Positions 9,001 through 49,099 of a stretch of DNA of 64,000 bases are shown here, one piece after another; the first letter of the stretch is position 1; each line of letters begins with the position of its first letter. The stretch is from Azolla caroliniana (taxonomy: Eukaryota > Plantae > Polypodiophyta): positions 9,486,001 through 9,550,000 of the forward strand of contig JBHGNT010000020.1 in assembly GCA_043228905.1 (NCBI GenBank). Reading direction: 5' to 3'. The translations under genes were made by a program, and so were the position numbers. The notes under the pieces are model-generated. The model did no database searches. It was not told the origin of the DNA and worked only from the letters and a program-made list of their open reading frames with translations.

Positions 9001-9533
9001 CTCTGGTTATTGAGAAAGGACTTTATGGATTGGGTCAACAACCCCGACAAGGGTCAAAACGCTTACGCGCTCCTCTAGGAGTTCGAGTCACGGTTCGTGC
9101 GGCTCTCTAGATTGGACCGAACCGTGCTCGAAACAAGCAAAGTTCTGTTTTTCGTTACGTCGTTTGACTCGCACGTCCGGGAAAGCATGGGTCTTCTTCT
9201 GGAAACCAACCGCGGTCTCACGATTGACTGGGCGACCGTCAAAGAAGTATGCAACAGGATTGACAAACGCCGAGATCGGAAAGAAAGGGAGTCCTCACGG
9301 GCCAGACCAGTTGTTGAAACTAGAGCCGAGCCGACACCGAGCCGACACCGACCCGAATGAAAGAAACGAGGAGGTGGCCTGAGCTAGGCCCACCCCCGAA
9401 AAACGTAGTCGCAGGGCCTGCAGGCGGCGTTGTCGTAGTGTATTTTGTACACTATGTGAAAAAGTAAAAATAATATAACCAATTTAATTACATATAAATA
9501 AATAAAATAAGAATATCAAAATATTTATCACGT

Positions 9534-9604
9534 GCATAGGGCAAGATTCAAACCCTGTACCTCCACGTAGCCAAACCTCAACTTTACCATTATGCTACCT
9601 TATC
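9534..9604 (-). promoter_or_regulatory. tRNA-like Pol III type-2 promoter cassette in E1 LTR (copy at 12374-12444)
   Basis: Minus strand A-box TAGCATAATGG (9597-9587) and B-box GGTTTGAATC (9554-9545), 44 nt from tRNA-equivalent T8 to G53. Confidence 0.6.
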
Positions 9605-10260
9605 TTTAATGTTCTACAAATAGATTTAATAACTATAAGTGCTTTATTTGCGCCTACCTTTATTAAAAGGTAAATCATGCATTTTTAGAGTGCGTGAATA
9701 TTTTATAGAAAAACGCAAGTAACTAAAAAGTGACTCATGCACATCTAGCGTGCATGAGCACTATATTTAGCAAATAAAAGCAAGGATTAGAAAAGCATCA
9801 CATGCACATTTAGTGTGCATGAACATATTAGAAAAAAAGAAGCATGTAGCTATGCTTAGTCTCTCCCATCACTACATAAGGATGGGGAGCACAATGTAAT
9901 AGGTGTGTGAAATATTTGGAAATTGGATATATTTCCGAAAACACCAACCGATTAATATAATCGTGGGATTCACGAAAATAATATAATCTATACTTGTGGG
10001 ATTCACAAGTTTCTTATATCTTTCTTTCAATCTAAATACATATTCTTATCTAAATATTGATTAATCGAATACAATACACTCGTGGGATTCACGAAATTTC
10101 TATCTCTCTTTCTAATAATCTATTCATTACTAGCCTCATCTCATATTCTTCTTTCTCCTAGTCCAAAACCTCAGTGGTTCCCACCCGACTCACGCAACGA
10201 TCCGGCGCCAAAAGGCACGACACATTTGGTGAACCCGACGTGAAGGCGGGTGGCAAGGAG

Positions 10261-12270
10261 ATGGAGAATCAACAAGAGGCGATGAACATGATGATGATGA
10301 TGGTTGAGCGGATGCAACAAGAACAACGCGCGATAACGGAGATGAAGGCAGCAGTAGAGCGGCTTGTGCGACGAAATGGGGAATTCAACGGAAATAATGT
10401 GTCACGCTATCTACGTGACTACAAAGGGGAGATGATGCAATGTGGGATACCGGAAGGATTGCAAGTGATATCCTTCAGTCGGGTAGCCACGGATGAGTTA
10501 CAAGAAAGAATCTACAAGATACGGCAACAAAATCCAACATGGGGGTCCTTTGAAGAAGCTTTACGAGAGGCATATGACTACGAGAGATCGAAGGGACGAG
10601 ATCGACGTGAGTTTGACGAATGGGTGGCATCGGAGAAGACCCACCGAAGTGCAACACAAGCATTCCTAGAGTTCAAGCATCATCTTGCTCGACTCTCGGA
10701 GCGGGAACAACGATTGGTGGGGGAGGATAAAGTCCTAATGTTCGTAAAATCGATCGATCGAAAAGAAAGGATGGACATCGGGATCGAACTCGAAGACGAT
10801 GACGGTACGAATGGTCTTACCGAAGATTGGGCCGAAGTCCAAAGGGTATGCCAGAGACATGATGAGAGGAAGATGAGAATCTTGTCAACGACATGGCCGA
10901 TGAAGGATGGTCGATTGAAGACAAACGATGGAGCCGATATGAAGGCCGAAATACAACATGATGGTGCGACGGAAGAGGGTGTAAAACAAGCTACCCTCTT
11001 GTCTTGCGAAAGAACAACAACGAAGGATAAGGCCGATAACCCAAGTGTAGAAGAAGATTTCAGAATACAAGTGTCTGAAACATCGGGTGAAAAAGGGGTA
11101 AGCATAATTGATGCAGTGAAAGAGAGCAAGGAGGACTTGATTGAGGAGGTCGCCACGAAAGATGACATCGAATCAAAGGTGGCTATGGACGAATCAACGA
11201 CGGATGGCCATATCGAGACTTCCCCACCACTGATTCCAAAGACTCCGACGGTTGCGTTCGAAAGGCAACGTGAGACCGAAGAGACGGAAGGTGGCGGAGA
11301 GAAAACAAAGGTCGAAGCCGATGCGTATGACGGAGAGATAGCCGAGAATATGGCTATGGGTGAAACAACGGAGGATGATAATACCGAGGATTCCTACCCA
11401 CTAATTCTAGAGACTTCGGCGGTTGTGTCTGAGAAACAATGTGAGACCGGAGAGACGGGAGGTGGCAGCAAGAAAGGTAAAGTCGGAAGCCGGTTCGGAT
11501 GGAAGGTGATCCGGACGGGATTCCGATCCGAAAGAAAGCCAAACCGGGTAAAAGAGGATTCGACCAAAAGTCGACCCGAAAGAAAGCCGAACCGAAAGGA
11601 AGAGAATTCGGCCGAAAGACGACACAAACGAAAGTTGAACCGGGCGAATGAGGATTCGGCCAAAAGACGACCCGAAAGAAAGCCGACCCGAAAAGGGGTC
11701 GACTCGGTCAAAACCGATCGACCGAGTCTGACTTGGCCGAACGCGAATATGGATGGAAGCCGACCTAGCCGAAAGCCGATCGGACGAGACCGATCCGGAA
11801 AGAAGCTAATCTGACTCAATCGGAGGTTGGACCGGTAGAGGCTGGTGAAAACGAGGAAAAGAAAGCCAACCGAAATCGAAACCGATAGATCGAAACCGGG
11901 CCAGAAGGAGACCGACTCAATCAAAACCGAACAACCGATTCCAATTCGGCCGAATACGAATCCGATCGGAAGCCGATCAAACCGAAAGTCGATTGGACGA
12001 GAGCGATCCGGAAAAAAGTCAAGGTTGATGAAGACAAGAAAGAGGCCAGTAAAAGACACTACCACAAATGACAAGGGCCAAGAATATGACGAGAGAGAAC
12101 AAAGAATATGGTGAATCGGATGGCGACAATGGTTCGGGTGGAAAGAATGGGTCTACTCAAAATGGAGAGACAAAGTTGACATAGCGGGACAAACGGAGGA
12201 TGAAGGGGAGACAACGAGCATCGGCAACTTCGGCACATACCGGAGGATGTGCGGGTTTGGAGGGGGCGAG
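10261..12270 (+). pseudogene. Gag-like ORF of E1 (Gag core + acidic region + Arg/Lys repeats + Trp-rich tail), broken by in-frame stops at 11812, 11836 and 12112
   Basis: Collinear with intact ORF 27529-29457; stops at 11812 and 12112 correspond to CGA and TGG codons in E2. Confidence 0.85.
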
Positions 12271-15088
12271 TGTCATAGTGTATTTTGTACACTACGTGAA
12301 AAAGTAAAAATAATATAACCGATTTAATTACATATAAATAAATAAAATAAGAATATCAAAATATTTATCACGTGCATAGGGCAAGATTCAAACCCTGTAC
12401 CTCCATGTAGCCAAACCTCAACTTTACCATTATGCTACCTTATCTTTAGTGTTCTACAAATAGATTTAATAACTATAAGTGCTTTATTTGCGCCTACCTT
12501 TATTAAAAGGTAAATCATGCATTTTTAGAGTGCGTGAATATTTTATAGAAAAACGCAAGTAACTAAAAAGTGACTCATGCACATCTAGCGTGCATGAGCA
12601 CTATATTTAGCAAATAAAAGCAAGGATTAGAAAAGCATCACATGCACATTTAGTGTGCATGAACATATTAGAAAAAAAGAAGCATGTAGCTATGCTTAGT
12701 CTCTCCCATCACTACATAAGGATGGGGAGCACAATGTAATAGGTGTGTGAAATATTTGGAAATTGGATATATTTCCGAAAACACCAACCAATTAATATAA
12801 TCATGGGATTCACGAAAATAATATAATCTATACTTGTGGGATTCACAAGTTTCTTATATCTTTCTTTCAATCTAAATACATATTCTTATCTAAATATTGA
12901 TTAATCGAATACAATACACTCGTGGGATTCACGAAATTTCTATCTCTCTTTCTAATAATCTATTCATTACTAGCCTCATCTCATATTCTTCTTTCTCCTA
13001 GTCCAAAACCTCAGTGGTTCCCACCCGACTCACACAACGATCCGGCGCCAAAAGGCACGATAGCGCAGGACTAGAAGAACTGACAAGGATGGTGCGCGAC
13101 CTCCAGATCGCCCATGCCCGGCGAAGCGACGAGGGTCAGCCGCGCGACTGACGACCGTTGGCCAATCAGAGGTGATATGGTGCGATGCCACCAAGCATTC
13201 CCGGAGATATTGCGCTGACCTCGGTGAAGCGCTTAGAAGTAATGTAGTCTATCTCTCGAATGGCAAGATACATGCGAGCGACACGCGAAGATTGCTTAAC
13301 GCGAATTTCGGACGAGGTGGCATGACGAGGCTAATGGAAGAAGCCGCGGCACGGCACGTCGAAGCCATCCACTACTCGGCTTCGGCCAACATCCGCGTAG
13401 GCAAGAGGGCAGCCAAACCCGATTCAAACCCTGGGTTCTGGTCGGTTGTTCTCGAGACCTTGTCTGGAGGAAGGTTGCAGAAGGGAGAGGCGGAGCGCGC
13501 GCAGGAGCGTGTGCGCGAAGTTACCAGCTGGAGTGACCCCGTTGAGGAGAGCACCGACTTTCTGGATGCCGCCTGCAGGAACTACGAGGCCCTGATCGAC
13601 GAAAGGCGAGCGAGGAAAACCGGAGGAGCGGGCCCTTTGGGGAGGTATGACCCCCGAAGCACGCCGAAAGGGCATGAGGCCACTCCAACCAGGTCCCAGG
13701 ATAAGGAGAAGGGCAAGACTCCAAGCTTCCATTTAAGCACGGAAATCGAGAAAACAACGAACCTACAAAAGGTTCAACAGGAGCGAGTTCTCGACAGTCG
13801 CATAGAACTCATGCTTAGGGAAGTGCTTGGCATAGAGAGAAGGGAATTCCACGACAACATCATGGACCTTGTGAAGAGAAAGCGTCTCACGACGGAACCG
13901 GAGCCCGAGAAGCCGGTTGAAGTAAGGACGACACTCCACTACGACTACAGAAACCCCTGTTCGTATCGGGGACGTGAAGGAACCGGTGGTAGCATTAATT
14001 GACCATGGGTCGGAAATTAACCTGATGTCCATGGACTTCTACAAAAATGGGAATTGGCCGATCAACACCAAACACGGGTGGAAGATACGCGTGGCTACAA
14101 GAGCCACGGAAGAACTACATGGGGCTTGCCCGAACGTCAGGGTGAGCGTCGGAGACGTCGATATAAACCAACACTTTTTCGTGCAAGAGACGTCTTCCCA
14201 CCTGGTCATCCTCGACAAACCATACATCATGGCGGCAAGAATGGAGACAAAAGTGCTAGACAATGGTTCAGTCTATGCGAGGGTTAAAAGTCAAGACGAC
14301 CGTCACTCCGTCCAATTTTTGACCGTTCAGAAGAATCACGAGCGGAACCGGGACACCCTTGGAAATAATGATAGGGCGGATTTTTAGAAAGGGCTATCAA
14401 GGCATGGGGCCGCGATAGTCCGTATAGCCGGAAAATTCCCCACACCTGTAAAATAGGAAGGAAAGTTTTGTTCTCTGACAACGGGGGATGTACCATAGCC
14501 AGCATCAGTGGCCGAGAAAGAAAACGGGCCGAGATACGCTTAAAGGCGTGCGGAGCCTTGAGTCACGACGAAGGAATTGGGGAAGTCGTGGAGGCGGTCT
14601 TGTTCGATGACACCCTTTGAGAAATTGGGAAGGTAGTTGAAGGAGGCCTAAGCGAAGACCGAGTCATACCAGTCAACTCGGTCAACATGTATGAAGTCAT
14701 TGCGGACATCGAAAGAAAAACCCGGGCGCATCGGACCGCCCGAGTAGACACCAAGTACAAGACTGTGGACCGGAAAGTGAAGCCCGTCGCGGCTCCCTTA
14801 CAGGAGGGCAGCTGGGAACGAATAAAGGGGGTCTTTACAGACCCGAGCTTGCGAGATCCGGCCGGCATAGGACACCGTTTCACCGACAAAACGCTACGAG
14901 AATTGAAGATTGGTAAGGGTGGCTTCCTACTGCCGATGGAAGAGGACCGGTTCAGAAGGATGCTCGAGAGGCATGTGAAAGCCTTCACATTCTCGCCGAG
15001 AGAGATCTAGTGCGTCGACCCGACCACTGTCGAACCAATGGTGATCTTTACCATGTCGCACGTCTGATGGAGCCTCAAACCGATTCAA

Positions 15089-16921
15089 GTGCCAAGAGCT
15101 CACATGCCCATGTTGATGGAGCTTCTTAAGCAGAAGGTGGAGCTGGGCATCCTCGAACCATCGAGTGCCCCTTACTCTAACCGGTGGTTTACGGTACCAA
15201 AGAAGAACGGTACGTTGCGCTTCATCCAGGACTTACAATCGGTCAACAAGGTGACCATCCGCAATACGGGAGTTGGGCCGTTGATCGATGAGTTCGCGGA
15301 AGCCTTCGCCGGAAGGTCCATATACTCGGTCGGAGACCTTTACTCGGGGTACGACCAGTTCCAGCTGGCCGTGGAAAGCAGGGAAATCACAACAATGCGA
15401 ACCCCTCTCGGCCTAGTTCAAATGTGTACCCTACCACAGGGAGGGACCAACTTGGTGGCACACATGGTAAATGCAATGAACAGAGTCTTGCGGGACTGTA
15501 TTCCAAACATCACCATGCCTTTCCTGGACGACATCCCTACCAAGGGGTGTCCGGAGGGGTGCCGAAGGTTTGTCACCGACCATATCTCCGACTGCGAGAA
15601 AATACTACAGAGGCTCGAAGGTGCGCGGCTTACCTTCTCAGGAGAAAAGTTGACCTTCGGACAGCCAGAGATCTTAGTGGTGGGCCATCTATGTGGGTCG
15701 TACGGACGGAAGCCATCGCTGATCAAGGTAGAGGCCATTTCGGCAATGGAGGAGTGTGAATCCGTCATAGAGGTTCGACGATTCTTAGGAGCATGTGCCT
15801 TTTACCACATATGGATCCCTCATTATGCGCACGTCGCCGAACCACTCTATGGCTTGCTAAAAAAGAGCAGGAAATTCGAATGGACAAAGGAACATACCGA
15901 GGCGGTCCAGAGGCTAAAACGAATGCTCAGCACAGCACCAGCTTTACGCAAAGTAGAATACGCACCGAGAACTCCAGTCTACATCACGGTGGACACCAGC
16001 CCGACCGGGATTAGATGGGTCGTAAATGAAGAGGACGAAGATGGCATGCGTTTCCCTATCCGGTTTGGTGCGAAGGTACTGAGCGAGCGACAACGAGGAT
16101 ATGCCCAAGTCAAGCGCGAGCTATGGGGCATCGTTTCAGCGGTTAAGGTCAACAAAGATTATCTAATCGGGACAGAAGTGATTATAGAAACGGATTGCCT
16201 GCCGATTCTCGGTATGGTCTCCGGATGCGCAACTCCCGACCTGGCCATGCTTAGGTGGATTGTGTACATCAAGTCCCTGAACCCAGAGATACAACACATC
16301 TTGGGTAAAGACAACGCCATGGCCGATATGCTTTTCAGAGCAAGGTTCGAGGACGAGGACGATATGGTATCGGAGAATGAAGAAGTCGGCACGGACTTCT
16401 TCGAATCGGCAAGGATGAGGATAAAAGGTAGAAGCGCTCCACCCCTGAACGAGTTCGACGAAGACGACTATGACGGGGAGTGGCTTCTAATCGGAAGGTT
16501 TCTAAAAACAATGACGGGGGACCCCACGATGACTAGGAAGGAGGCGGGACAGCTCCGAAAAAGGGCATACCGGTACTTCTTACGGAATGGGAAAATCTTG
16601 AGGGACCCAAAAAGGAGAAATGACGCGCCGCTCCGGGTAATAACGCGGGCGGATGATCAAGAGAAGCTAATATCGGAGTTCCACGAAAGCCCTTGGTCTA
16701 GACACCGGGGTACGTGGGCCACATTCAAGAAGATAAAGGAAAAATACTGGTGGCCAAGTATGTATAAGAGCGTGCACGACTTCGTGTCCACGTGCGAAAG
16801 CTGCCAGATGCACTCGGTCGTTCGACACCGTGATGAGCTGCACCCAACCTACCCCCCGACTGTGCACTTCAAATGGATGGTAGACTTAGTAACCATGCCG
16901 ATGGGAGAGGGTCAGAAGTGA
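15089..16921 (+). pseudogene. Gypsy D pol (RT, RNase H, integrase Zn finger)
   Basis: PKKNGTLRFIQD, DLYSGYDQ, FLDD, VRRFLG, YAQVKRELWGI, H..H..CESC; PR-RT-RH-INT order. Confidence 0.9.
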
Positions 16922-19013
16922 TACCTGGTGCTAGCTAGAGAAGACCTAACGAACCAGGCAGAGGGCCGAGCACTAACGAATAAGACCACCGCGGAAGTAT
17001 GTAAGTTTCTGATAGAAGATGTCATATGCTGATACGGGTGCGTCGGAAAAATTGTAGCTGACCGAGGAGAGCTAGATGCGGAAGAGGCCGAAGAATTGTT
17101 CGATTGGCTAGGCGTAAAACTGTTCCTCACAACAGCGTACAACCTAGAGGCAAATGGAAAGATAGAGCGAGGCCACAGTCCGATCGTAAAGGCCATTGTA
17201 TGCGCGTGCGAAGGGCGAGTCGGCGACTGGCCAAGGTTGCTCCCTTACATGCTATGGGCGGACCGGACTACCCATAGTTCGGTGATAGGGTACATGCCGG
17301 CGAAACATATCTGTCTACGCTTGTGTCTACGCACGTTCCTCTTACACTATCTCTCTTGTTTTGCTAATCTTTCTGTTTAAACCACGGTACGGTCTCAGGG
17401 CCTACGTAAACCACAAACTCTTCCTCCTCACTTCTTGATTCCTTGGTTCAAGACCCTCGTGGTCCTGCCCAACTTCTACGCATCTGCGAGGATTTCCTCG
17501 ACAACGTGGCCTATCCGCTTGTGCCGCAAGTCAATATCCGAATCGACTCTTTGTCCTTTTGCGAACATTGCGGTGCCAACGTCATTGGTGTTGAGGATAA
17601 ACCACCTCCCATCTCTGCGCCCATGCTCAATAAGTTGGCCTTCCTCCTCGATGAAGCACCCGAGATGCGTGAACCGGACTTGCATCCCCTGGTTGACGAT
17701 CTGGCGGACCGACACCAGATTCTTCGTGATTGTCGAGACGTGTAACACGTTCATGAGATTCCCTTTTTGCCCGACATGGCTCAGGGGAACTTCACCGACA
17801 TTCTCGATCGGATGCGGAGTGTCGTCTCCTGTTGCAACTACTCCCGGTTGCATCGGTTTCTCAAGGTATGAGAACCACTCCTTATGGCTCGTCATGTGGT
17901 TTGACGCGCCAGAGTCAATGTACCACACCTCATCCGATTTCGGGGTGGTCTTCTTCATCGAGTTCGCTTCGTGTCTCGCCACGAAGGCTGCCCCCTTTCC
18001 GACTTTTTCGGATCCTTCGGTGTAGTGCAATCGCTACCGATTTCCTTTGTTGGTTTGTCCGGATCCGGATCCGGTCTTCTCTGAATCGGCGCACGTCTTC
18101 CAGCACTCACTCTCCTTGTGGCCTTTGTTGCCACATTACCAACATTCCATGATGGATTTCCCTTGCCGATTCTCGTTGCCTCAACTCCCCTTGTTTCCGG
18201 TGGGTCCGGAATTGCTGTCGGCATCACTTCGGTGCCTTCTTCCTTGATCCTGTCAGCTGCTTCCATTGCACACCGACTCGCCTTGTCCGCCATGACCACG
18301 GGGCCTATCTCCCTCCGTGTACAACATCTTGCTATCGGTGTGCGTGCTCGTCGACGCACCCACGTGGTTCTCCTCTATAAGGAGCATCAAATGTAGGTCG
18401 AAAAATGACGACGTATTCTCCCGTGTGCACACAACAGTTCGGAACGCTCTGAAGTTCAACGCTAGTTCCCCGAGACAGATCTGCACCATCTCACCTTCCT
18501 CGATGTTCACATCGATGGAGGCTAAGGAGTCGCATATCTCTTTGATCTTCGAGGTGTAATCAACCACAGACAAATCGTGTTGTCACAAATTGCTCAACTC
18601 CTGTCGGAGTTGGAGCTTTCTGGCTGTGGTGGTTGTGGCGAAAATCTTTTTCAGATTTCCCCAAGCATCCTTCGGCGTTTTTGCATCCCGAATATAGCTC
18701 AGAAGTTGTTCGCCCGCACAAGACGCGAAGCAGTAGAGAACTCTGCTCACCGACTGTTCCCAAGCTGGGAAGTCTTTGTGTGTCGAATCGGGTGCCGTGT
18801 CATGTGCTCTATCCATGCCCGAGCAGGTACTGGTGCATCTTGTACGACGAAGACGCGTAGTTGTTTCTGTCGAGCTTCTCGGTCAGAAGCGAGCTAGCCA
18901 TGCCTCTATCCATTTTGTTTTCCTTGTTCTTTACGAATGTTAGGTTTTCTTCTCGAGCCAAGGCCATTTTGTATTAGAGCGCGAGGGTTCTCAACCCTCG
19001 CGCTCTAATACCA

Positions 19014-19435
19014 TGTAAAAACAAAGGTGCGGAAGCAACAGAAAACCGAACGTAGGAAAACACAGGTCTAATGGAGAGCTTAAACACACAGTACGTGGGA
19101 GAGACAGAGAGAGAGAGACGATACACACAACTCTATTTCAAAAATAATACTCAGTCTGTACATAGAATGTGCTCCGAGAGCAATTTTATACAAGTCCATA
19201 CGGACTGACAGAAGTACTGACACGTACTTCAATGCTCATAACTGAGCTCTACACTAACTCCCAAAATGTATTCCTACGCGGAATATCTTCCCAACGGCCT
19301 CGGGGTTTACGCACCACTATGGCTTCTTGTTGCGCACCGGTTTATGCACCGGTCCAGCCTAACCAATCGGTATCAACTGATCCGGTTCTCGGCTTGCACA
19401 GCCGATCCGGCCAATGTTGAGCTTGTATCTCAACA
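19014..19435 (-). repeat. 5' LTR of Copia C
   Basis: High similarity to 4098-4521; adjacent to PBS. Confidence 0.95.
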
Positions 19436-19999
19436 ATTATGTTGAGCTTGATTCACAACAAGTATAATGCTAACGACTTTGTCAATTGCTATAAAGCTCG
19501 AATCAAAGTGAAAGGATACAGAGCCGACTGATGATCGATCTTAGGATTCGTGTTCTCTCTCGAAAGGGGAGCCATCTCTTGGAGCAACAAGAAGCAACCG
19601 ACCGTCGCACTTTCGAGCACATAGGCCGAATACAAGGGCGTGGTTATGGTTGCATGTGAAGCTGTTTGGTTGAAGAGAATATTTAAGGATCTGGGCATTC
19701 CCATCAAGGATCTGATTCCCCTTTATTGCGACAACATGAGTAGTATTCATCTGGCTCAAAACCTGGTGTTCCACTCGTGCACGAAGCATATCGAAGTGCA
19801 CTATCACTTCATCTGAGAGCGCGTTCAGGCTAGACATCAACACGAATATTCAGACAACCGACATCTTCACCAATGCCCTAGAAGCTGACAAGCTTCGGCA
19901 ATTCATGTTAGACCTTGGATGGACGATCCCTGACTTGCCAAGCTTGAGGGGGAGTACATACAAGAGAGAACCAGATACCAGCCAAAGCAAACATTGTCA

Positions 20000-20071
20000 T
20001 GATATGGCAAGACTCGAACCCATGACCTTATACTACATGGGTCGAGCTCTTGACCATTAGACTATACATTG
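20000..20071 (-). promoter_or_regulatory. tRNA-like Pol III type-2 promoter cassette at the start of the chromovirus LTR (copy at 25223-25294)
   Basis: Minus strand A-box TAGTCTAATGG (20064-20054), B-box GGTTCGAGTC (20020-20011), 45-nt T8-G53 spacing. Confidence 0.6.
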
Positions 20072-20178
20072 TAATACATAGAATATTATTTTCATTTATG
20101 TTTTATTATAGAAAATTGATGTATATTCCAGATTTCTCTAGAACATTCTAGAAACTTCAGGAGTATTCCTTAGAACAC

Positions 20179-20444
20179 TATAAAAGGAGGCACAAGGCAT
20201 TATTTCGAACCAAATCGGTTCAACGCCAGTCTTAAGCCTCCTAGCTACTGTACATTTTCTTCACATAATATATATCTTTTCTTATCATCACACACACTCT
20301 CTCTCTCTCTCGATCTCTCTCTCCCTCCTTCTCACTCACTCTTTCCTTCTCTCGAGAGTTCTTCACCTCTCTTAGTACTAATACTTCTTTTAGTACTAAT
20401 TCCTTCTCTGTCTTAGTACTATTCCTGACAGTTTGAACCGATTT
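20179..20444 (+). promoter_or_regulatory. TATA box, predicted transcript start and self-priming PBS of the chromovirus
   Basis: tataaaa 20179-20185; aaatcggttcaa 20212-20223 is the exact reverse complement of ttgaaccgattt 20433-20444; no TGG tRNA PBS. Confidence 0.8.
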
Positions 20445-23400
20445 TGCTACCTTGTGTCTCTCTCATTTCCTACTAATCTCTTATTCCTCTTTTCTTTCAT
20501 CCCATGGCCACTGTTAGCGCTGAAGAATATCAATCTGTTTTCTCGGAATTTCAATGCTTGAAAGAGAAGTTCCATGCTTTGGAACAAGAAAACCAACGGT
20601 TGCTGGGGGATCTTCAGCAAATCTCCTTAAAAAAGCAGCAAACGCAACAGCATGGGGAACTTACGTTACGCGTGCAACAACTCGAAGCAACCATCGTAGC
20701 GATGCAACAACAAGGGCCCGGAACGCAAGGGATTCATAAAGAACCCAAGATTGGCCTTCCCACGAAGTTCGATGGAACGCGATCGCAGTTTAGAGGGTTT
20801 CTTAACTAGGTACGATTAGGTATTCAAATGCATCCTTCCCGGTATCCCATCGATGCATCACGAGTGGGTTTAGTAGGCACTTTGTTACGTGGCTCAACGT
20901 TGGCATGGTTCGCTCCACTATTAGAAAAGGAATCCCCGTTACTCAACAATTTTGAAGAGTTTCTCCGTGAGTTTAAAGCATGTTTCGGAGATACTGACAG
21001 CATCAGGACCGCAATCAACAAAATTCGGCGATTACGCCAAGGTGACCGTCCAGCCTCCGCATATGCTGTAGATTTTCGCCTACTCGCCGCCGATATCCCT
21101 TGGGATGATCAAGTGTTGATGGAGCAATTCCGTTATGGTTTATGTAACAACGTCAAGGATTTACTCTTGACCTTCCCCGAAGAGCCAAAGTCCTTAACAG
21201 AAGCAATCAGTCACGCGGTGAGATTTGACAACTGCCTCTTTGAGCGACGTTCGGAACGACAACTACAGATGTCGAGGGCAAGATTAGAGCCCACCTACGC
21301 CTCAGTGGTAGCAAGACCTTTTCCAAGGGAGTCATATAATGCGCCTCCAGCGAATACTCTGACTCCGATGGAGATTGACACTACACGTCGTCGAGGGCCA
21401 TTATCCGAAGAAGAAAAGCAGCGACGCCGTACAAATCGACTATGTCTTTACTGCGGTGGACCAGGACATATTACAATAAATTGCCCCCATAGGCCAAGAA
21501 GACATGTAAACCAAATAGTCGCTAGTTCTAATTGTACTAAACCCGAGCCTATTTCAGTAGGGATATCTGATAGTCCTAATAGTACTAATAGCCCAAATCT
21601 AGAAAACAGATTTGATGTCCTTAGTTAGTTAGAAGAAGAGTTAAACGACTAAGTCCAGCCAAAATAGGAGCCGTTTGGTTGGACAACCCTAGATCTGTGT
21701 AGCCCATTAGTGGTTCCATTCCCTCTAAGCAAGTTAGTGATGTGTTCGTAGCCCAAGTAATAGTTAGTACTAAAAGTACCCCTCCAGTACATGTCCTAGC
21801 ACTCCTAGATTCCGGAGCTAACTCTTGCTTTATGGATAAGAAATTTGCTCAAGCTCATAAGATATCCCTAAGAAAACTCCAGTGTCCAGCCTCTGTAGTA
21901 GTCATTGATCCGGAAATATCATAGAAGAGTCAGAGCCCATTAATATTGTCCTAGATAACTTAGCATGTGTAGTATCATTTAATATTATTAGTATCCCAGA
22001 ACATCCCATACTTTTAGGATTACCATGGTTCGAGTTACATAACCCAGACATAGATTGGAGAACAAGAGAAATCCGGTGTCGACAAACCCAAGGGTCAACT
22101 TAGAAAATGGCAACCATTTCGCTACGTCAGTTGCGTAAAGAAGGGCACAAGGAGGAAATGTTCCTCTTTGCAATATCAGTAAACCCCTCCAGCACCACTA
22201 AAGAAGGATCCACCGTTCAACTTCCTGAGAAGTATTGTCATTACGCCGATGTGTTCGATAAAGTACAAGCCAACACACTTCCTCATCATCGACCGTACGA
22301 TTGCCCCATCGATTTACAACCAGCAAAAGAGCCGCCATGGGGACCGATCTACAATTTGTCACCAACCAAGCTGGAAGTCCTTCGGGCCTATATAGAGGAG
22401 AATTTGGAAAATGGTTTCATCCGGCATTCGAAATCTCCAGCCGGCGCGCCCATTTTCTTCGTCAAGAAAAAGGATGGATCGCTTCGTCTTGTTGTAGATT
22501 ACCGTGGCCTGAATAAGGTTACAATCAGGAATAGGTATGCTCTTCCCCTTATCTCAAGTCTTTTAGAACGGATCAATGGTGCCAAGTTCTTCATGAAGAT
22601 TGACTTACGGGGAGCATATAACCTCGTACGGATCCGACCAGGAGACGAATGGAAGACCGCGTTTCGCACCAGATATGGGCACTTCGAGTATACGGTCATG
22701 CCGTTCGGCCTCACTAATGCACCGACAGTCTTCCAACACATGGCTAATGATATATTCCGAGATCTATTGGATGATTGTTTGATCATCTATTTGGATGATC
22801 TACTGGTTTATTCAAAGGCCCAAGAAGAACATGATTCTCATGTACTATTAGTACTAAAACGACTTTGAGAACATGGTCTGTATGCAAAGCTGGAAAAATG
22901 TAGTTTCGGGTGCAACCAAGTGGAATTTCTCAGCTACATCATTTCGTCAAAAGGCATCTCCATGGACCCAGCTAAGGTCAAAACGGTGGTAGAATGGCAG
23001 ACTCCACGTTCGGTGCGGGATGTGCAATGCTTCCTAGGCTTTGCCAATTTTTACCGGAAGTTCATACAAGATTACTCAAAGATCGTTCTACCTCTCACAC
23101 AACTTACCAGGAAGGGACAACCGTTCATTTGGTCTGAAGAAACGGACGTGGATTTCAAAAGTCTTAAAAAGGCATTTACATCGGCTCCAATTCTAGCTCA
23201 TGTCGATCCGGAAAAACCATTTATTATCGAAGCTGACGCATCGGATTTTGCATTGGGGAGCATTCTGTCACAACAGGGGAATGATGAGAAGCTACATCCT
23301 ATGGCTTTTCACTCACGCAAGTTTGATGCCGCCGAAATCAACTACGAAATTCATGATAAGGAGCTATTGGCAATAGTGGATTCTTTTATGCAATGGAGGC

Positions 23401-26129
23401 ATTTTCTGGAGGGATCCTCTCATCCGGTCACCATATTTAGTGACCATAAGAACCTTGCCTACTTTCAGGATGCTCGTGTGTTGAATCGACGTCAAGCTCG
23501 GTGGGCCCACTTCCTCACGCATTTCGACTTCAAAATTACATATCGTCCGGGGAAGCACCAAGGGAAGGCAGATGCATTATCACAGCGTTCGTATCTAGCA
23601 CCCCGTCCCGGCGAGCCAGCTTTCGATAACAAAAAACAAGTCATCTTGGGACCGGCACGACTACAAGCAACAAAGATCTTTGACATGCCCATGGATTCCC
23701 GCGTTATAGATACCATACGCGAAGACTTTGAGACAGATGCGTTCGCCCAAGCTATACTAGCACAAATTGATCCCTCTCGAGCGTCGTGTTCACAATCGCA
23801 ACCACCATGTACGGACTATCGGCAATTCAAATACCATGATGGATTACTCTTCTTTAAAGAATTTTTGTATGTTCCTAATGGTTCTTGCCACCTTCAAGTA
23901 GTACAAAACTGTCATGACACATATATAGCTGGGATTTTGGTAGTACTAAAACACTACATTTAGTACAACGATCATTCTGGTGGCCCTGTATGCGACAATT
24001 TGTCGAGGATTTTGTTCGGACTTGTGATACATGCTGCAAAGCGAAAATGCCAAGGCATCATCCATATGGTTTATTAGAACCATTACCAATTCCAAGCAAG
24101 CCGTGGCAATCCATTGCTCTAGACTTCATCACAGATCTTCCAATCTCTAAGGGGTTCAATGCGATTCTAACGGTGGTCGATTGATATACGAAGATGACTC
24201 ATTTCTTGCCATGTACTAAGGAGATCTCCAGTGAAGACACTGCCGAAATTGTCATGCGTGAAGTATGTCGGCATCATGGACTTCCCGATAGTATCATCAG
24301 CGACCGTGGACCCCAATTCGTGTCAAAATTCTGGAAGCACCTTTTTAACATGCTCAAGGTCACTTGTAACCTCTCCTCCGGTTACCACCCACAAACCGAT
24401 GGCCAAGCCGAACGAACCAATCAAACGCTGGAGCAGTATCTGCGGTGCTTTCTCAGCTATCATCAGGATGACTGGGCAAATATTCTCCATTTCACCGAAT
24501 TTGCCTATAACAACTCTATCCACGCATCCACGAAAGTTACGCCATTTTATGCTTATACGGGATGTCACCCCCGGTTGTGTGTACTTGAAACCCTAGAGGT
24601 GTCCACAAATCCTTGCGCAGAGGATCGTTTGGAGAGGTTACCCAAGATACAAGCGGATTTATCTACTCATCTCCAACAAGCTCAACAAACACACAAGGTT
24701 TATGCGGATCATCATCGACTCCCATCTAGTTTTAACATTGGAGATCAGGTATGGCTACTCCGACGACACATCAAGACTACTCGCCCATGCGAGAAGTTGG
24801 ATTATCGGCGATTAGGTCCTTTCCGTATTATTGGAAAGATTAATGATGTCGCTTTTCGTCTTGATCTACCTCCACAACTTCGGATACATCCGGTGTTTCA
24901 TAGTTCTCTCCTCGAACCCTATCAAGAAAGCACCATCACCATCCCAGGACGTATTACACAGCCTCCACCCCCGATCAAGCTTGAAGATGGACCTAAGTAC
25001 GAGGTTGCCGCCATCCTTGATTCCAAGCTTGTTCGCAACAAGCTCTACTATCTAGCCGACTGGCTAGGATATAGTCCCAGCGAGTGTACTTGGGAACCGA
25101 TAGAGAATGTCACCAATGCTCGTGCTCTTCTTGAAGACTTCCATCGTCAATATCCAGACAAACTGGGTCCTCAATCCAAAACGACTCGTTACACTCGTCG
25201 TTTTAAAGGGGGGATAGTGTCATGATATGGCAAGACTCGAACCCATGACCTTATACTACATGGGTCGAGCTCTTGACCATTAGACTATACATTGTAATGC
25301 ATAAAATGTTATTTTCATTTATGTTTTATTATAGAAAATTGATGTATATTCCAGATTTCTCTAGAACATTCTAGAAACTTCAGGATTATTCCTTAGAACA
25401 CTATAAAAGGAGGCACAAGGCATTATTTCGAACCAAATCGGTTCAATGCCAGTCTTAAGCCTCCTAGCTATTGTACATTTTCTTCACATAATATATATCT
25501 TTTCTTATCATCACACACTCTCTCTCTCTCCCTCCTTCTCACTCACTCTTTCCTTCTCTTGAGAGTTCTTCACCTCTCTTAGTACTAATACTTCTTTTAG
25601 TACTAATTCCTTCTCTATCTTAGTATTGTTCCTAACAGACATTAGCTGACATGGACACCATAAGAAGGCCAAAAGCCAAAAGCCGACCAAAGTTAAGCTT
25701 GAGGGGGCATGTTGAGAATCAAGCTCAACATAATCTAGTGTGTGAACACACATTTTGAGAATCTATGAGCACTCATAGGTCAAAGGTCACCAATACTTTT
25801 TATACATTAACTATACGTCATAGAATCATATTCTATGACACATAACTAATTGTTGGGAAACAAGGTCCCTCCATATGGGAAGGAGAACACAAACCGGATC
25901 AGTTGGATCCGAAGGAGAATAAAGGCCGGACGCGGATCTGGATAGGCATCCGAAAGAGGCCACATATGTAAATAGGTTTAGCGTTGCACCTATTTAGGTC
26001 AGATTTGTAAATAGTCCTAATTTATATAAGTATAAATATAAATGGGGCAAAAACATTAGGTATGAAGTTCATATTGTTGTAATAATGTGATAGTGTGAGA
26101 GAGAGTGTGAGACATGGAGACATAGAGAC

Positions 26130-26169
<40 letters not shown>

Positions 26170-26857
26170 AGAGCGTGTTGTTGCATCTCTGTTGTACCCG
26201 CCATCTAGCGAAGAAGACGAGCCCAGGGTCTTGCCTGGTAGTCTCTCTGTATTTCCTTTCGCATAGTGACATAGCTTGGAGTCTGTGGACTCCCGTGGTT
26301 TTTCCCTGTTAGGGTTTTCCACGTAAAACATCTTGTGTCACTATACTTGTGTATTTCTGTTTCCTGTTTTGTTTGTTCAAATCTTTCACCAGCATACATT
26401 ATAGTATAAACCGGTTGTGGCCGTCTTCGATCTCAACAAACTGGTATCAGGGCGATGAAAGACTCATTTGGCGGCATGTTCAAACTAACCGGCTCCAACT
26501 ATTCAGTGTGGAAATCGAAGATGAGGGACATGTTGGTGTTCAAAGATTTATGGTTGCCGATGCAGTAATGTAAGACCAAACTAGACAAGATTGATGCATC
26601 GACTTGGGAAGTCATGCACCTGAAGACAACATCATACATAAGATGTTTTATAGACATGAATCTATACAACAACTTCAACGAGGACAACAAGGCGGATGTC
26701 TTTTGGGAGAAGATTGACATTATGTTTGAAAACAATAATGTCGTTAACAAAGTCTCCGTTGTCGTAGTGTATTTTGTACACTACGTGAAAAACGTATATA
26801 GTATTAGATTCAATAAAAAATGAAGAAATAGAAGAAAATAGCAAAATAAATGGAACA

Positions 26858-26929
26858 TGCATAGGGCAAGATTCGAACCTTGCACCTCCATGTTAATAAT
26901 GTAATGTCTTACCATTACACTAGCATTTC
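26858..26929 (-). promoter_or_regulatory. tRNA-like Pol III type-2 promoter cassette in E2 LTR (copy at 29612-29683)
   Basis: A-box TAGTGTAATGG (26922-26912), B-box GGTTCGAATC (26879-26870) inside a GCAAG/CTTGC stem; T4 run downstream at 26846-26843. Confidence 0.65.
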
Positions 26930-27528
26930 ATTAGTGTTAAAGCATAGATGTCCCACATAGAAAGGTAAATTCACGCTAGGATAAACATTAGAAAAACGCA
27001 TAACAAAAGAAAAAGCTACACATACACATCTAGCGTGCATGATAAAAAACGCACAAGTTAGAAAAAAAGCATGATCACTTTAGATAAAGCATATAGTCTA
27101 TCTATAGGAAAAGCATGGGGTCTATAGTTAGAGAAAAAGCATAGATTACTAAGACTTCCTCATCACTACATAAGGATGGGGAGCACAATGTAATTGTGTG
27201 TGAAAAAATATTTGGAAACTGGATATGTTTCTAAAAAACACCAATTAATAAACTATACTCGTGGGATTCACGAGGATTCTATATCATTCTCTTTCAACCC
27301 AAATTTATATTCTTATATTCATATTGATTAATCAAATACAATACACTCGTGGGATTCACGAGTTTGTTATAACTCTTTCTTACAACATATTTATATTCTT
27401 ATTAGCCTTAAAACTCTCCTCTTCCTAGTCCAAAACCCCAGCGGTTCCCACCCGACTCATGCAACGATCCGGAGCCGAAAGGCACGACACAAGTTGGTGA
27501 ACCCGACGTGAAGGCGGGTGGCAAGGAG

Positions 27529-29457
27529 ATGGAGAATCAACAAGAGGCGATGAACATGATGATGATGATGTTCGAGAGAATGCTACAAGAACAACGCGAG
27601 ATGTCGGAGATCACGACAGTAGTACAACGGCTCGTGCAACGGAACGGGCAATTTGATGGAAAGGATGTGTCACGCTATCTACGTGACTACAAGGCGGAGA
27701 TGATACGATGTGGGATACCGGAAGGATTGCAAGTGACATCCTTCAATCGGGTGGCCACGGATGAGCTACAAGAGAGAATCCACAAGATACGGCAACAAAA
27801 CTCGACATGGGGATCATTCGAAGAAGCTTTACGAGAGTCATATGATTACAAGAGATCGAAGGGACAAGATCGGCGAAAATTCGACGAATGGGTGGCATCG
27901 GAGAAGACCCACCGAAGTGCAACACAAGCATTCCTAGAGTTCGAGCATCGTTTTGCTCGACTCTCGGAGCGGGAACGAAGATTGGTGGGAGAAGATAAAG
28001 TCTTAATGTTCGTAAGATCGATCGATCGGAAAGAAAGGATGGACATTGGGATCGAACTCGAAGATGATGACGGTGCGAACGGCCTTACCGAGGATTGGGC
28101 TAAAGTCGAAAGGGTATGCCGAAGACATGATGAAAGGAAGCTGAGAATCTCGTCAACAACGACATGGCCCATGAAGGATGGTCGATTGAGGAAAAACGAT
28201 GAAGCCAATATGAAGGCCGAAATACAACATGATGGTACCACGGGAGAAAGAGTGGAACAAGACACCCACTCGTCTTGTGAAAGAACGATGGCGAAGGATA
28301 AGGCCAATAATTCAAGTGTAGAAGGAAATTTCGGGATACAAGTGCCCGAGACATCGGGTCAAAAAGGGGTAAGCATAATAGATGTTTGCATAATTGATGC
28401 AGATAAAGAGTGTGAAGCGGATGTGATTAAGGAGGTAGCCACAAAAGACGAAATCGAATCGGAGGTGGCTATGGACGAATCAATGGCGGATTGCCATATC
28501 GAGACTTCCCCACCACTGATTCCAGAGACTCCGGCGGTTGCGATCGAAAGGCAACGTGAGACCGAAGAGACGGAAGGTGGCGGAGAGAAAACGAATGTCG
28601 AAGCCGACGAATACGATGAAGAGATAGCCGAGAAGAATGCTAAGGGTGAAACTACGAAAGAAGGTAATACCGAGGATTCATGCCAACAATATCTAGAGAC
28701 TTCGGCGGTTGTGTCCGAGAACCAACGTGAGACCGGAGAGACGGGAGATGGCGGCGAGGAAGGTAAAGTCGGAAGTCGGTTCGGATGGAAAATGATCCAT
28801 CCGAAATTCCAATCTAAAAGAAAGTGCGACAATGCGGAGGTCGGGTCTACGACGGGAGAAGCGCGTAATACAGAGCACGCTCTACGGCGAATAAAGAAAC
28901 GCGTGTTATGGCGAATAAAGAAGCACGCGCTACGGCGAGAAAAGAAGCATGCATTACAACCACACGAGGACCGAACAACGAGCACATATCGGAGGACCTA
29001 CGTGGCGAACAACGGAAAGAAGTGCCGAAAGTCGAACCGGACAAGGCAGGTGAAAACGAAGAAAAGAAAGCAAATCCGGACGAAAAGAAAAGAAAAGAAA
29101 CCGACCCGAAAGAGCACTGAATCGGTAAAAACCGATCAACCGAGTCCGGATCGACCGAATACAAATCGGAAAGGAAGCCGAACTAAACGAAAGACGATCC
29201 GACGAGACCGAATCGGAAGTAAGCTAATCCGACTAAACCGAAAATCCGAAAAGAAGTCGAGATTGATGAAGAAAAGAAAGAGGGCAAGAAAAGATACTAC
29301 CGCGGATGACAAGGACCAAGCGGGCCATGCAAAAAGCGAACATAGAATATGGTGGATCGGATGGCGACAATGGTTCGGGTGGAAAGAATGGGTCTACTCA
29401 AAATGGAGAGACAAAGTTGACATAGCGGGACAAACGGAGGATGAAGGAGGAGACTAA
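27529..29457 (+). CDS. Intact 642-aa Gag-like protein of E2
   Basis: N-terminal ~210 aa resemble Gypsy D Gag (GQFDGKDVSRYLRDYKAEM vs GRFSGKDATSYLEAYKYEM; GLTEDWAKVERVC vs GLTIDWATVKEVC), followed by acidic, basic and Trp-rich segments. Confidence 0.88.
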   Translation: MENQQEAMNMMMMMFERMLQEQREMSEITTVVQRLVQRNGQFDGKDVSRYLRDYKAEMIRCGIPEGLQVTSFNRVATDELQERIHKIRQQNSTWGSFEEALRESYDYKRSKGQDRRKFDEWVASEKTHRSATQAFLEFEHRFARLSERERRLVGEDKVLMFVRSIDRKERMDIGIELEDDDGANGLTEDWAKVERVCRRHDERKLRISSTTTWPMKDGRLRKNDEANMKAEIQHDGTTGERVEQDTHSSCERTMAKDKANNSSVEGNFGIQVPETSGQKGVSIIDVCIIDADKECEADVIKEVATKDEIESEVAMDESMADCHIETSPPLIPETPAVAIERQRETEETEGGGEKTNVEADEYDEEIAEKNAKGETTKEGNTEDSCQQYLETSAVVSENQRETGETGDGGEEGKVGSRFGWKMIHPKFQSKRKCDNAEVGSTTGEARNTEHALRRIKKRVLWRIKKHALRREKKHALQPHEDRTTSTYRRTYVANNGKKCRKSNRTRQVKTKKRKQIRTKRKEKKPTRKSTESVKTDQPSPDRPNTNRKGSRTKRKTIRRDRIGSKLIRLNRKSEKKSRLMKKRKRARKDTTADDKDQAGHAKSEHRIWWIGWRQWFGWKEWVYSKWRDKVDIAGQTEDEGGD

Positions 29458-32073
29458 CAAACACCAACAACTTCGGCACATACCGGAGGATGTGCGGGTT
29501 TGGAGGGGGTGAGTGTCGTAGTGTATTTTGTACACTACGTGAAAAACGTATATAGTATTAGATTCAATAAAAAATGAAGAAATAGAAGAAAATAGCAAAA
29601 TAAATGGAACATGCATAGGGCAAGATTCGAACCTTGCACCTCCATGTTAATAATGTAATGTCTTACCATTACACTAGCATTTCATTAGTGTTAAAGCGTA
29701 GATGTCCCACATAGAAAGGTAAATTCACGCTAGGATAAACATTAGAAAAACGCATAACAAAAGAAAAAGCTACACATACACATCTAGCGTGCATGATAAA
29801 AAACGCACAAGTTAGAAAAAAAGCATGATCACTTTAGATAAAGCATATAGTCTATCTATAGGAAAAGCATGGGGTCTATAGTTAGAGAAAAAGCATAGAT
29901 TACTAAGACTTCCTCATCACTACATAAGGATGGGGAGCACAATGTAATTGTGTGTGAAAAAATATTTGGAAACTGGATATGTTTCTAAAAAACACCAATT
30001 AATAAACTATACTCGTGGGATTCACGAGGATTCTATATCATTCTCTTTCAACCCAAATTTATATTCTTATATTCATATTGATTAATCAAATACAATACAC
30101 TCGTGGGATTCACGAGTTTGTTATAACTCTTTCTTACAACATATTTATATTCTTATTAGCCTTAAAACTCTCCTCTTCCTAGTCCAAAACCCCAGCGGTT
30201 CCCACCCGACTCACGCAACGATCCGGAGCCGAAAGGCACGACACCGTGTTCCATGTTGTTGATCAGTGAGCAGAACGAAGTGAATCTTGTCGGCGATGAA
30301 TCGACATGGGTGGTTGACTCTAGAGCGTCGTTTCACCTGACCCCTGACCAGAAGTGCTTCTCATTGTACAGAGTCAGAGACCACGATTTTGTAAAGATGG
30401 GAAATGAAGGAGCATGTTGAATCATCAGCATAGGAGATGTGTGTTTGGAAACGTCGTGCAGATTAGTGCTGAAGGATGTTCAACACATTCCAGAAGTAAG
30501 ATTGAATCCGATATCGAAAAACTTAATAATGTTACATCTAAACATCTTGTACTCTAAAAAAAAAGGGAAGAGGCCATAAGCTTGGATTCATTTGATTCTC
30601 TATCAAACAAGGATGACAATGGAAATTTGAGCATAGAATGTAAATCTACATGCTAGATTGCCTTAATTTTGATGAAAGATGAATTCGGAATCTCATGTCA
30701 AAGTGCTTGGTGCATCAACATCTTGGGGATTTTACAAGGTTCGTGACGTAATTTTCGAATTGCGAATTCAAGTTGTAGACCAAATTTAAGTCATTAGTGA
30801 AAGAAAATTAACTAATGATGCGAATTGAACGCATAACACTGAGTTGAAACTCAACACTCCAGGTTGATGTAGGACTCTCCGTGGTTTTAATCCATTGAAA
30901 GCCCCTTCTTGAAGGGCATCCTTGGAATTTAAATTCACAAAGGGTTTACATGAAATTTTCCACAAAGGGAGGGAGTAAGGAGGAGAAGAGAGGAAGAGGC
31001 TAGGCCCAAAAGACTATATACACATACACGTCAATACATAACAACATAACTTCACATTTCAATCACATATACATAAACATTCATACAAATATAATGCACA
31101 TGCATGCAAATATAAACATATATACATACTTACAAGTTACACATGTAACTATATACATACATCTTTCTTTTAGTAACACTTTTATTACTAGTGGGAAGCC
31201 TCAAAGTGAGGTGAAAACCCATAAAGAATAAAGAGAAATATACAAGTGTCGATTAGACACTAAAGAGTTTAGAAGCACTCAAAGTAAAGATTGCAAATTT
31301 GTAGTGTGATGTCTCTAAGTTGCAGACAATCAAATAGAGATTGTCTGAGTAGTTGCTTAAAGAAGCTAACTTCATGCCTTTGGTTTTGATCAAAGACCTT
31401 ATTATTGCGGACCATATACATACACATATGCACATTTCCACGTATTGATATTTATGTATATATATACATAAATATGTGCATATTTGTATGTTCATACACA
31501 CACACACACACACTCAAGTACACACATGCATTGTATTTTGCATGCATGGGTTGAACATTATATACATAGCCATATTTATGCACACATACAAGACAACCAT
31601 ATAAATACTCTTATATGCCTAGGCACTCGTGAACTCACACATTTACTTAAGCACTCATATACACACTTGATTATACTATTAAAACTCTTATCAACAACAT
31701 TCAAAGGAAGCTTAAAGCTAGTACAACTGATAAATTTGAGGCTCTTGATCATCAATTGGAGCCAATCCCATGTTCCATTGTTTAGGTTTTCCATGTGGTT
31801 CTACGCACATTTCACACTCATGTGCATAACTCCACAACAACGAAGTATAATAAGATGTGATTGCATGTGTTTGTTGCCATATGTTAGGTTTACCTAAATG
31901 CCATTATATTTGAATTTGAAATTATTCACTTGGATGTGAGGGCCTCTACTAGGCATATGGTTCAATGGCCATCATAAGCAAATCATCAACGATCGTCTCA
32001 AATTGTGCATTCACATTCCATTCCTTTACTAGTTTGCATGCCCAACTAGAAGAGGTAAGGATTAGCAAACCAG

Positions 32074-40084: not shown

Positions 40085-40130
<46 letters not shown>

Positions 40131-49053: not shown

Positions 49054-49099
<46 letters not shown>

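Follow-up and report, generated by a model that had tools for sequence, protein, structure and literature searches.

Six copies of a cassette resembling the internal promoter of a tRNA gene, an A-box and a B-box at tRNA-like spacing, lie within long terminal repeats (LTRs) belonging to three Gypsy retrotransposons in a 64-kb stretch of the Azolla caroliniana genome (contig JBHGNT010000020.1 of assembly GCA_043228905.1, positions 9,486,001 to 9,550,000). This stretch is called the window here, and coordinates count from its first letter. The cassettes, all on the minus strand, occupy 9597-9540 and 12437-12380 in element E1, 26922-26865 and 29676-29619 in element E2, and 20064-20006 and 25287-25229 in a third element, a Tcn1-like chromovirus. 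Each is antisense to its host element and close to the 5' end of the LTR, and their sequences and positions agree with an earlier interpretation of this DNA made without database searches (the sequence-only reading). Judged by its sequence, the cassette is a decayed tRNA gene; it is a real feature that looks selected, and its function we infer. The function that we favour, with about even confidence, is that of a docking site on DNA for the transcription factor TFIIIC, shielding or opening the LTR promoter used by RNA polymerase II (Pol II). Among the options raised by the sequence-only reading, that of an insulator appears to fit the pattern best.

A loose regular expression for the two boxes matched the window at exactly these six places, and 200 block-shuffled windows gave a mean of 0.065 matches and a maximum of 1. 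The six represent two or three independent events only. From T8 to G53 (tRNA numbering) the distance is 44 nt in E1 and E2 and 45 nt in the chromovirus, the tRNA-like spacing that had been claimed. With both boxes at a workable spacing the cassette has the make-up of a type II RNA polymerase III (Pol III) unit, in E1 one without C56, this invariant base of the B-box being replaced by T in both LTRs. A position weight matrix (PWM) trained solely on 20 host tRNA genes gave the cassettes scores of 22.3, 27.2 and 28.7, host tRNAs scoring 14-34; a shuffled-LTR check proposed with the sequence-only reading came out in its favour, none of 60 shuffles of each LTR reaching the score of its cassette. 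Tests with tRNA-finding programs, also proposed there, were negative: ARAGORN reported zero tRNAs in the window, and Rfam gave no tRNA (RF00005) match to the cassettes at E<=10. An intact tRNA or known RNA family was thereby ruled out, and the cassette also fails as a functional tRNA gene, its acceptor, D, anticodon and T stems not being paired as a cloverleaf. No cassette was found in the other LTR elements of the window that were tested, namely, four Copia-type LTRs or LTR pieces and one Phygy-like host element. One Copia LTR family (49007-49393 / 40038-40424 and 25711-25850) contains, without a B-box partner and probably by chance, the A-box-like stretch GGTCAAGAG that also occurs in the chromovirus cassette.

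Genome-wide, a strict pattern gave 2,621 matches in 523 Mb and 0 in the control. The first 30 of these all lay in E or chromovirus LTRs at an identical position and strand, and the idea that the cassette is a free short interspersed nuclear element (SINE), or one inserted in only these copies, as the sequence-only reading had allowed, was rejected. A free tRNA-headed repeat, F5, does occur in the genome (L093-L095; e.g., L095:4918-5298); it is a SINE-like unit of ~320-430 bp that has a long basal stem and unrelated flanks, lies outside LTRs, and differs from the cassette in sequence and body. A second pattern that left out the E and chromovirus types gave 1,280 further matches (control, 1), some of which are host tRNA genes, and twenty regions chosen from this list yielded four more Phygy-like families with cassettes, F1-F4. 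These families are ~7.4-7.9 kb long; in F1, F3, and F4, gag and a pol frame of 1158-1181 aa are open in some copies, and LTR pairs of F3 and F4 are up to 99.7-99.8% identical. Carrying families have one to four cassettes per LTR. In F3 and F4, a CATGCA-rich block and the TATA box have two antisense cassettes upstream of them, and a sense cassette, of which several variants occur genome-wide, stands downstream of the TATA box (L086:885-1986, L089:7988-8915); being ~100-150 nt past that box, it would therefore belong to the 5' leader when the genomic RNA is made. In samples of LTRs anchored on the primer-binding site (PBS), the cassette was present in 24/30 E-type and 27/30 chromovirus LTRs.

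For analysis of conservation, LTRs were likewise anchored on the PBS and not on the cassette, 14 box positions were fixed from the tRNA consensus, and one natural representative was taken per subfamily. Mean pairwise identity in the E family (5 representatives) was 0.91 in the boxes, 0.72 between the boxes, and 0.65-0.68 in the flanks; the corresponding values for the chromovirus (12 representatives) were 0.86, 0.68, and 0.59-0.72. In these cassette-blind samples the boxes are thus more conserved than their surroundings, as had been proposed, with Mann-Whitney p values of 0.001-0.016 for boxes versus flanks and middle. F1, F3, and F4 are 60-63% identical in pol, with four-fold sites near saturation (0.26-0.43); in pairs of these families the boxes are alike at 11-13/14 positions, versus 8-14/25 in the anticodon arm, where ~7 are expected by chance. 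For aligned pairs, 13/14 in the boxes versus 11-12/25 in the middle gives binomial p values of 2e-4 to 6e-4; two other pairs are weaker (p 0.02 and 0.12). The sole blastn match between the LTRs of E2 and F1, whose gags are 34% identical, is the cassette (87.5% over 48 nt). The T8-G53 spacing is 43-46 nt in 25/25 cassette types and exactly 44 in 19/25, and of the 19 types with that spacing, 18, 19, and 19 retain the letters of AGG at tRNA positions 44-46, which entered neither the PWM nor the search patterns. Between E1 and E2, the sequence-only reading had taken both the anticodon-arm region and the flanking U3 to be unalignable. The anticodon-arm stretch is indeed scrambled (11/25 identical), but it alone is; the LTRs align end to end at 68%, and the cassette flanks are identical at 16/19 bases.

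RNA features have fared differently from the boxes. The acceptor, D, anticodon, and T stems of the cassettes average 2.7/7, 2.7/4, 2.7/5, and 3.2/5 pairs, those of host tRNAs being nearly full. The distance from the cassette to the first run of four Ts (T4) ranges from 6 to 176 nt across cassette types, or there is none, and no oligo-T terminator is conserved. The T4 runs past the B-boxes of E1 and E2, which had been read as terminators, are at chance level (when the downstream DNA is shuffled, a T4 falls within 40 nt with P ~0.65), and the chromovirus LTR ends 16 nt past the B-box with no T4 inside. Furthermore, sense cassettes occupy the same place in the LTR, upstream of the TATA box, in L267, L270, L271, and four relatives in genome G000, these four with recognizable boxes. 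With decayed stems, no conserved terminator, and relatives in sense orientation, the defined short antisense RNA suggested by the sequence-only reading loses its footing. An active Pol III gene, in which such an RNA or outward transcription would be selected, for example, for regulating the element or blocking incoming host transcription, would account for the retention of both boxes at tRNA-like spacing, for the AT-rich DNA upstream, and for D- and T-stem pairs slightly above chance, and working Pol III units are described in foamy-virus LTRs (PMC3993851). One RNA-library contig matches 20003-20124 apart from 18 differences, but assembled contigs show neither strand nor transcription. We nevertheless regard an active gene as unlikely: a conserved terminator and an Rfam match are both wanting, a chromovirus transcript would exit the LTR 16 nt past the B-box, its end lying in other DNA from one insertion to the next, and the orientation is reversed in a related lineage.

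A DNA site is preferred over an RNA product because cloverleaf, terminator, and orientation are not conserved, and a protein-bound site fits the kept boxes, the lost RNA features, the free orientation, the tandem duplication, and the location, with the LTR edge on one side and the Pol II promoter on the other. TFIIIC would bind the A-box/B-box pair in the LTR and, once bound, would hold the Pol II promoter open and shield it from silent chromatin in the flanks; clearing of nucleosomes or a barrier effect would benefit the element. TFIIIC-dependent barrier and nucleosome-free placeholder roles are described as known for tRNA genes and for extra TFIIIC (ETC) sites, which are extended B-box motifs (PMC12409998), and in yeast an assembled Pol III complex is reported to stop Pol II read-through (PMC4228148). 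A wider proposal, which we put forward tentatively, is that two unrelated groups of autonomous Gypsy elements may each have made a tRNA gene their own portable TFIIIC boundary, some families bracketing the Pol II promoter with outward-facing cassettes.

Several findings weigh against a maintained TFIIIC site. Shared ancestry is not taken into account in the column tests, and conservation of the U5 end and of the TATA region equals or exceeds that of the boxes. C56 is lost in 8/24 E copies, versus 1/27 chromovirus copies, and T56 in both LTRs of E1 means that this copy likely transposed with a damaged B-box. The A-box G10 drifts in several subfamilies, one chromovirus cluster (2 copies) has a 20-nt deletion between the boxes, and box identity across families could come partly from separate captures of different tRNAs or SINE heads. 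Unlike ETC sites, the cassette keeps its A-box as well, so real Pol III initiation may occur, and a block to Pol II read-through would cost the element in its 3' LTR. Only 4/30 Trp-primed (Phygy-like) LTRs carried a cassette, 26/30 being without it, as were all 30 LTRs primed by initiator methionine tRNA (iMet) and all 29 of other chromoviruses, and cassette-less Phygy-like families outnumber the cassette-bearing ones; because most Phygy-like and all sampled iMet-primed and other chromovirus LTRs lack it, the cassette is not required for amplification. Its absence from most related families, the losses of C56, the inter-box deletion, and the presence of both capture routes and the F5 repeat in the genome would also be in keeping with passengers, that is, tRNA or SINE-head fragments acquired by a few ancestors and now decaying, their box likeness stemming from tRNA origin and the search method. 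We judge this quite unlikely in view of the excess of box identity over flanks and middle in the cassette-blind samples, the binomial contrasts in aligned pairs (with the two weaker pairs noted), and the retention of the cassette in most anchored copies, in tandem duplicates, and in two unrelated Gypsy groups.

TFIIIC or TFIIIB might instead act in another step, such as direct activation by loading of TBP back-to-back with the Pol II promoter, nuclear tethering or clustering of copies, or handling of the cDNA at integration. In the chromovirus, T8 lies 115 nt from the TATA box, so that TFIIIB would land between the cassette and the TATA box; 11 nt separate the end of the cassette from the LTR tip. 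Work by Nakaar in 1994 is said to have found that expression of trypanosome small-RNA genes needs upstream tRNA genes. These roles are distinctly unlikely given how much the distances vary: from T8 to the TATA-like motif it is 245-276 nt in E2 and E1, and from the cassette to the LTR tip ~70 to ~630 nt. It is highly improbable that the conserved letters are sites of an unrelated host factor that merely resemble Pol III boxes. Conservation does reach past the minimal boxes, to AGGT at 44-47 and TGGT around 16-20; yet the invariant letters are the tRNA invariants T8, A14, G18, G19, G53, T54, T55, C56, A58, and C61 at tRNA spacing, and host tRNA-Trp, too, shows AGGT and a spacing of 44 nt.

The cassette would have begun as a copy of a host tRNA, captured by reverse transcriptase running through the tRNA primer or taken from a SINE head. 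The antisense orientation would follow directly from primer read-through. Two diverged Arg-primed Gypsy copies, L251 (G000:C1:14809166-14812196) and L252 (G000:C1:16202344-16205374), have a PBS that is the reverse complement of the whole mature tRNA-Arg(TCT), CCA included, which looks like primer read-through; reverse transcriptase-coding sequence follows the PBS within ~0.5 kb, and no gag was seen. In L373 (G000:C6:16308117-16311137) and L374 (G000:C6:16595794-16598814), 2/30 loci matching the tRNA-Trp 3' end, a Phygy-like PBS extends via the T-arm into the variable loop of tRNA-Trp; one of the two belongs to the E family. The whole tRNA-Arg and extended tRNA-Trp PBSs suggest, therefore, that primer read-through makes antisense tRNA copies beside LTRs in this genome; since F5 exists as a free tRNA-headed repeat, a SINE donor is possible as well. 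As for the source isotype, Arg(TCT) was best in 9/27 and 7/27 cassettes in two comparisons with 16 host tRNA types, some of them probably organellar, and the middle of tRNA-Trp does not match. Outside the boxes, the cassettes of E2 and of chromovirus type Ch3 are identical at 10/25 and 3/8 positions. Separate captures in the chromovirus and Phygy-like groups are likely on sequence grounds, because their cassettes have little in common beyond the boxes.

The closest described system is Helenus (TRIMp3; Kojima 2024, PMC10886601), a terminal-repeat retrotransposon in miniature (TRIM) reported to have tRNA-derived sequence in both LTRs, conservation centered on boxes A and B, no working cloverleaf, and solo and tandem copies. 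Helenus is 311-1263 bp long and noncoding, and its tRNA part has been proposed as the element's own promoter (PMC10886601), whereas the elements here are ~3.5-7.9 kb, have gag or gag and pol and a TATA box, and carry mostly antisense cassettes, up to four per LTR. Thus, of the marks of Helenus/TRIMp3, they have boxes A and B in both LTRs and lack the small size (<~1.3 kb), the noncoding interior, and the promoter that transcribes the element; in the window the cassettes lie in U3, upstream of the TATA box or TATA-like motif, and point outward from the element. The same source argues that autonomous partners of TRIMp3 need Pol II and are unlikely to have long LTR stretches in common with TRIMp3, and it mentions "not a few LTRs" in Repbase with tRNA-like sequence, TRIMs being the only ones analyzed in its available text (PMC10886601). 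Cassandra and Ajax also retain Pol III promoter boxes in their LTRs, but these form a type I promoter derived from 5S rRNA in short noncoding elements, and Cassandra is described as transcribed from it through the element (PMC10886601). Foamy viruses likewise have A/B-box Pol III microRNA units in the LTR of an autonomous retroelement beside a Pol II promoter; those units make defined hairpin RNAs with terminators (PMC3993851), whereas neither a conserved hairpin nor a conserved terminator was seen here. Like tDNA barriers and ETC sites, the cassette is predicted to be a TFIIIC-type DNA site acting on nearby chromatin and Pol II (PMC12409998, PMC4228148); those, as described, are host loci of yeast and mammals and not mobile cargo. 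The available descriptions of Phygy and Tcn1 (Neumann 2019, PMC6317226) mention no tRNA-like LTR cassette, and the accessible portions of 10.64898/2026.03.01.708851 and PMC13578239 describe none. No account of conserved A/B cassettes in autonomous plant Gypsy LTRs was found in the literature searched, which was mostly nonsubscription and did not cover Repbase. What seems new is the presence of tRNA-box cassettes in LTRs of autonomous, protein-coding Gypsy elements; Pol III boxes in TRIM and foamy-virus LTRs were already known.

It is an open question how LTR retrotransposons of plants stay transcribable in silent chromatin. Documented cases of TFIIIC barriers come mainly from yeasts and mammals, and no report of them in plants was found in the literature searched. 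Were the boxes to bind TFIIIC, retrotransposons would add thousands of TFIIIC sites (the 2,621 strict matches come from just two lineages), the TRIMp3 idea would cover autonomous elements too, the boxes serving them in another way, and a simple path would lead from primer read-through to regulatory DNA. If the portable-boundary proposal were true, every insertion would bring an insulated open promoter into heterochromatin, an antisilencing device built from the Pol III machinery, and retrotransposition would have spread thousands of TFIIIC sites in a plant genome. Young intact families whose LTRs have zero to three cassettes, in one orientation or the other, occur together in a single genome and offer a ready comparison set.

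Apart from the minus-strand cassettes, all features of the three elements lie on the plus strand. E1 (9431-13061, 3.6 kb) and E2 (26760-30243, 3.5 kb) belong to one lineage, with 79% identity over 2.1 kb. The E1 5' LTR (9431-10222) starts with TGTCGT and is 98.9% identical to the 3' LTR (12271-13061); those of E2 (26760-27489 and 29514-30243) are 99.7% identical, and E2 has a 4-bp target duplication, CCGT. Both pairs are thus young. In the E1 5' cassette, the A-box is at 9597-9587 and G53 at 9553. The TATA-like motif TACATAAGG at 9873-9881 of E1, also present in E2, is a candidate Pol II promoter, and the E1 PBS (10227-10243) complements the 3' end of host tRNA-Trp(CCA), which the E2 PBS matches too. 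Each element has a single open reading frame (ORF) with no Pfam match and no pol: 550 aa stop to stop in E1 (10162-11814), with 28-39% identity to the DUF4100-bearing gag of full-length relatives, and 681 aa stop to stop in E2 (27412-29457); the two gag-like ORFs are 66% identical. The description of the elements as protein coding thus applies to E1 and E2 only as far as gag, but is right for their full-length relatives elsewhere in the genome.

The third element (19995-25637, 5.6 kb) has LTRs at 19995-20430 and 25218-25637 (97.4% identity), the latter preceded by a polypurine tract, and encodes gag, reverse transcriptase, RNase H, integrase, SH3, and chromodomain between 20810 and 25225, with several broken ORFs in this copy. 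Its TATA box, TATAAAA (20179-20185), has six columns invariant in 12 subfamily representatives. A self-priming PBS at 20431-20446 complements a self-primer target at 20213-20223, which would mark the RNA 5' end; this target and the TATA box place the cassette in U3. The chromodomain (PF00385) and self-priming in place of a tRNA PBS are the features described for Tcn1, and the E and F elements resemble Phygy as described (PMC6317226) in lacking a chromodomain, in having ORFs that fill the interior, and in their NCGN target preference (duplications CCGT, ACGC, GCGT, and ACGT); Pfam on F pol gave the order reverse transcriptase, RNase H, integrase. We therefore call E1/E2 and the F families Phygy-like and the third element Tcn1-like, labels that rest on features and not on a tree with REXdb references.

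E1 is enclosed by a cassette-less Phygy-like element (8438-17503) whose pol is 72% identical to that of F1; its 3' end is cut, integrase being joined straight to the last 200 bp of the LTR. The 3' half of E-family LTRs contains the palindromic motif TCGTGGGATTCACGA two to four times (9950-10100, 27260-27360), and E-family tandem arrays with shared LTRs and a period of 2.75-2.9 kb occur at G000:C1:20867503-20873056 and C3:11236257-11242077. In a gag tree of 34 rows (of 54 sequences, 17 were left out as short ORFs and 3 as long-branch or truncated), the cassette trait needs 2 changes; a single origin in Phygy-like families is neither shown nor rejected (approximately unbiased test, p=0.053). A search with PF24626 yielded, among its 30 loci, other chromovirus families at 31-37% identity, and the viral contigs searched held no chromovirus relative. 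From a metagenome scan with an integrase alignment, 80/195 loci were kept, and 10/42 with enough flank bear cassettes, several of them redundant. These cassette-bearing loci are 71-95% identical to the nearest G000 loci compared; L271 has no close copy in G000, and for the remaining metagenome loci a different species is not established. Weak PWM matches were excluded from counts, both those scoring 15-19 (L113, L124, L129, L153, L174, L179, and L193) and those scoring 17-21 in coding DNA, a U5 hairpin, or flanks (L275, L283, L284, L293, L300, L315, and L319), as were a match in L104, which is the L103 LTR on the other strand, and one in L136, 1.2 kb downstream. L136 and L393 contain another cassette type, with the A-box TAGCTCARTTGG, which in L393 lies in DNA resembling a Phygy-like LTR promoter, a TATA box following ~280 nt downstream.

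Host tRNA genes themselves form clusters. Tandem arrays with a 1.18-kb period and tRNA-Arg(TCG) and Arg(ACG) genes lie at G000:C1:25.11-25.15 Mb and C9:18.39-18.44 Mb (L253-L262). Genes for tRNA-Trp form arrays at C8:17.80-17.82 Mb, C16:4.99-5.11 Mb, and C5:10.10-10.11 Mb, and a Lys/Asn tRNA cluster lies at C5:17.99 Mb. In the window, an AT-rich array of ~150-170-nt units with inverted copies lies between Copia pieces at 44690-46430.

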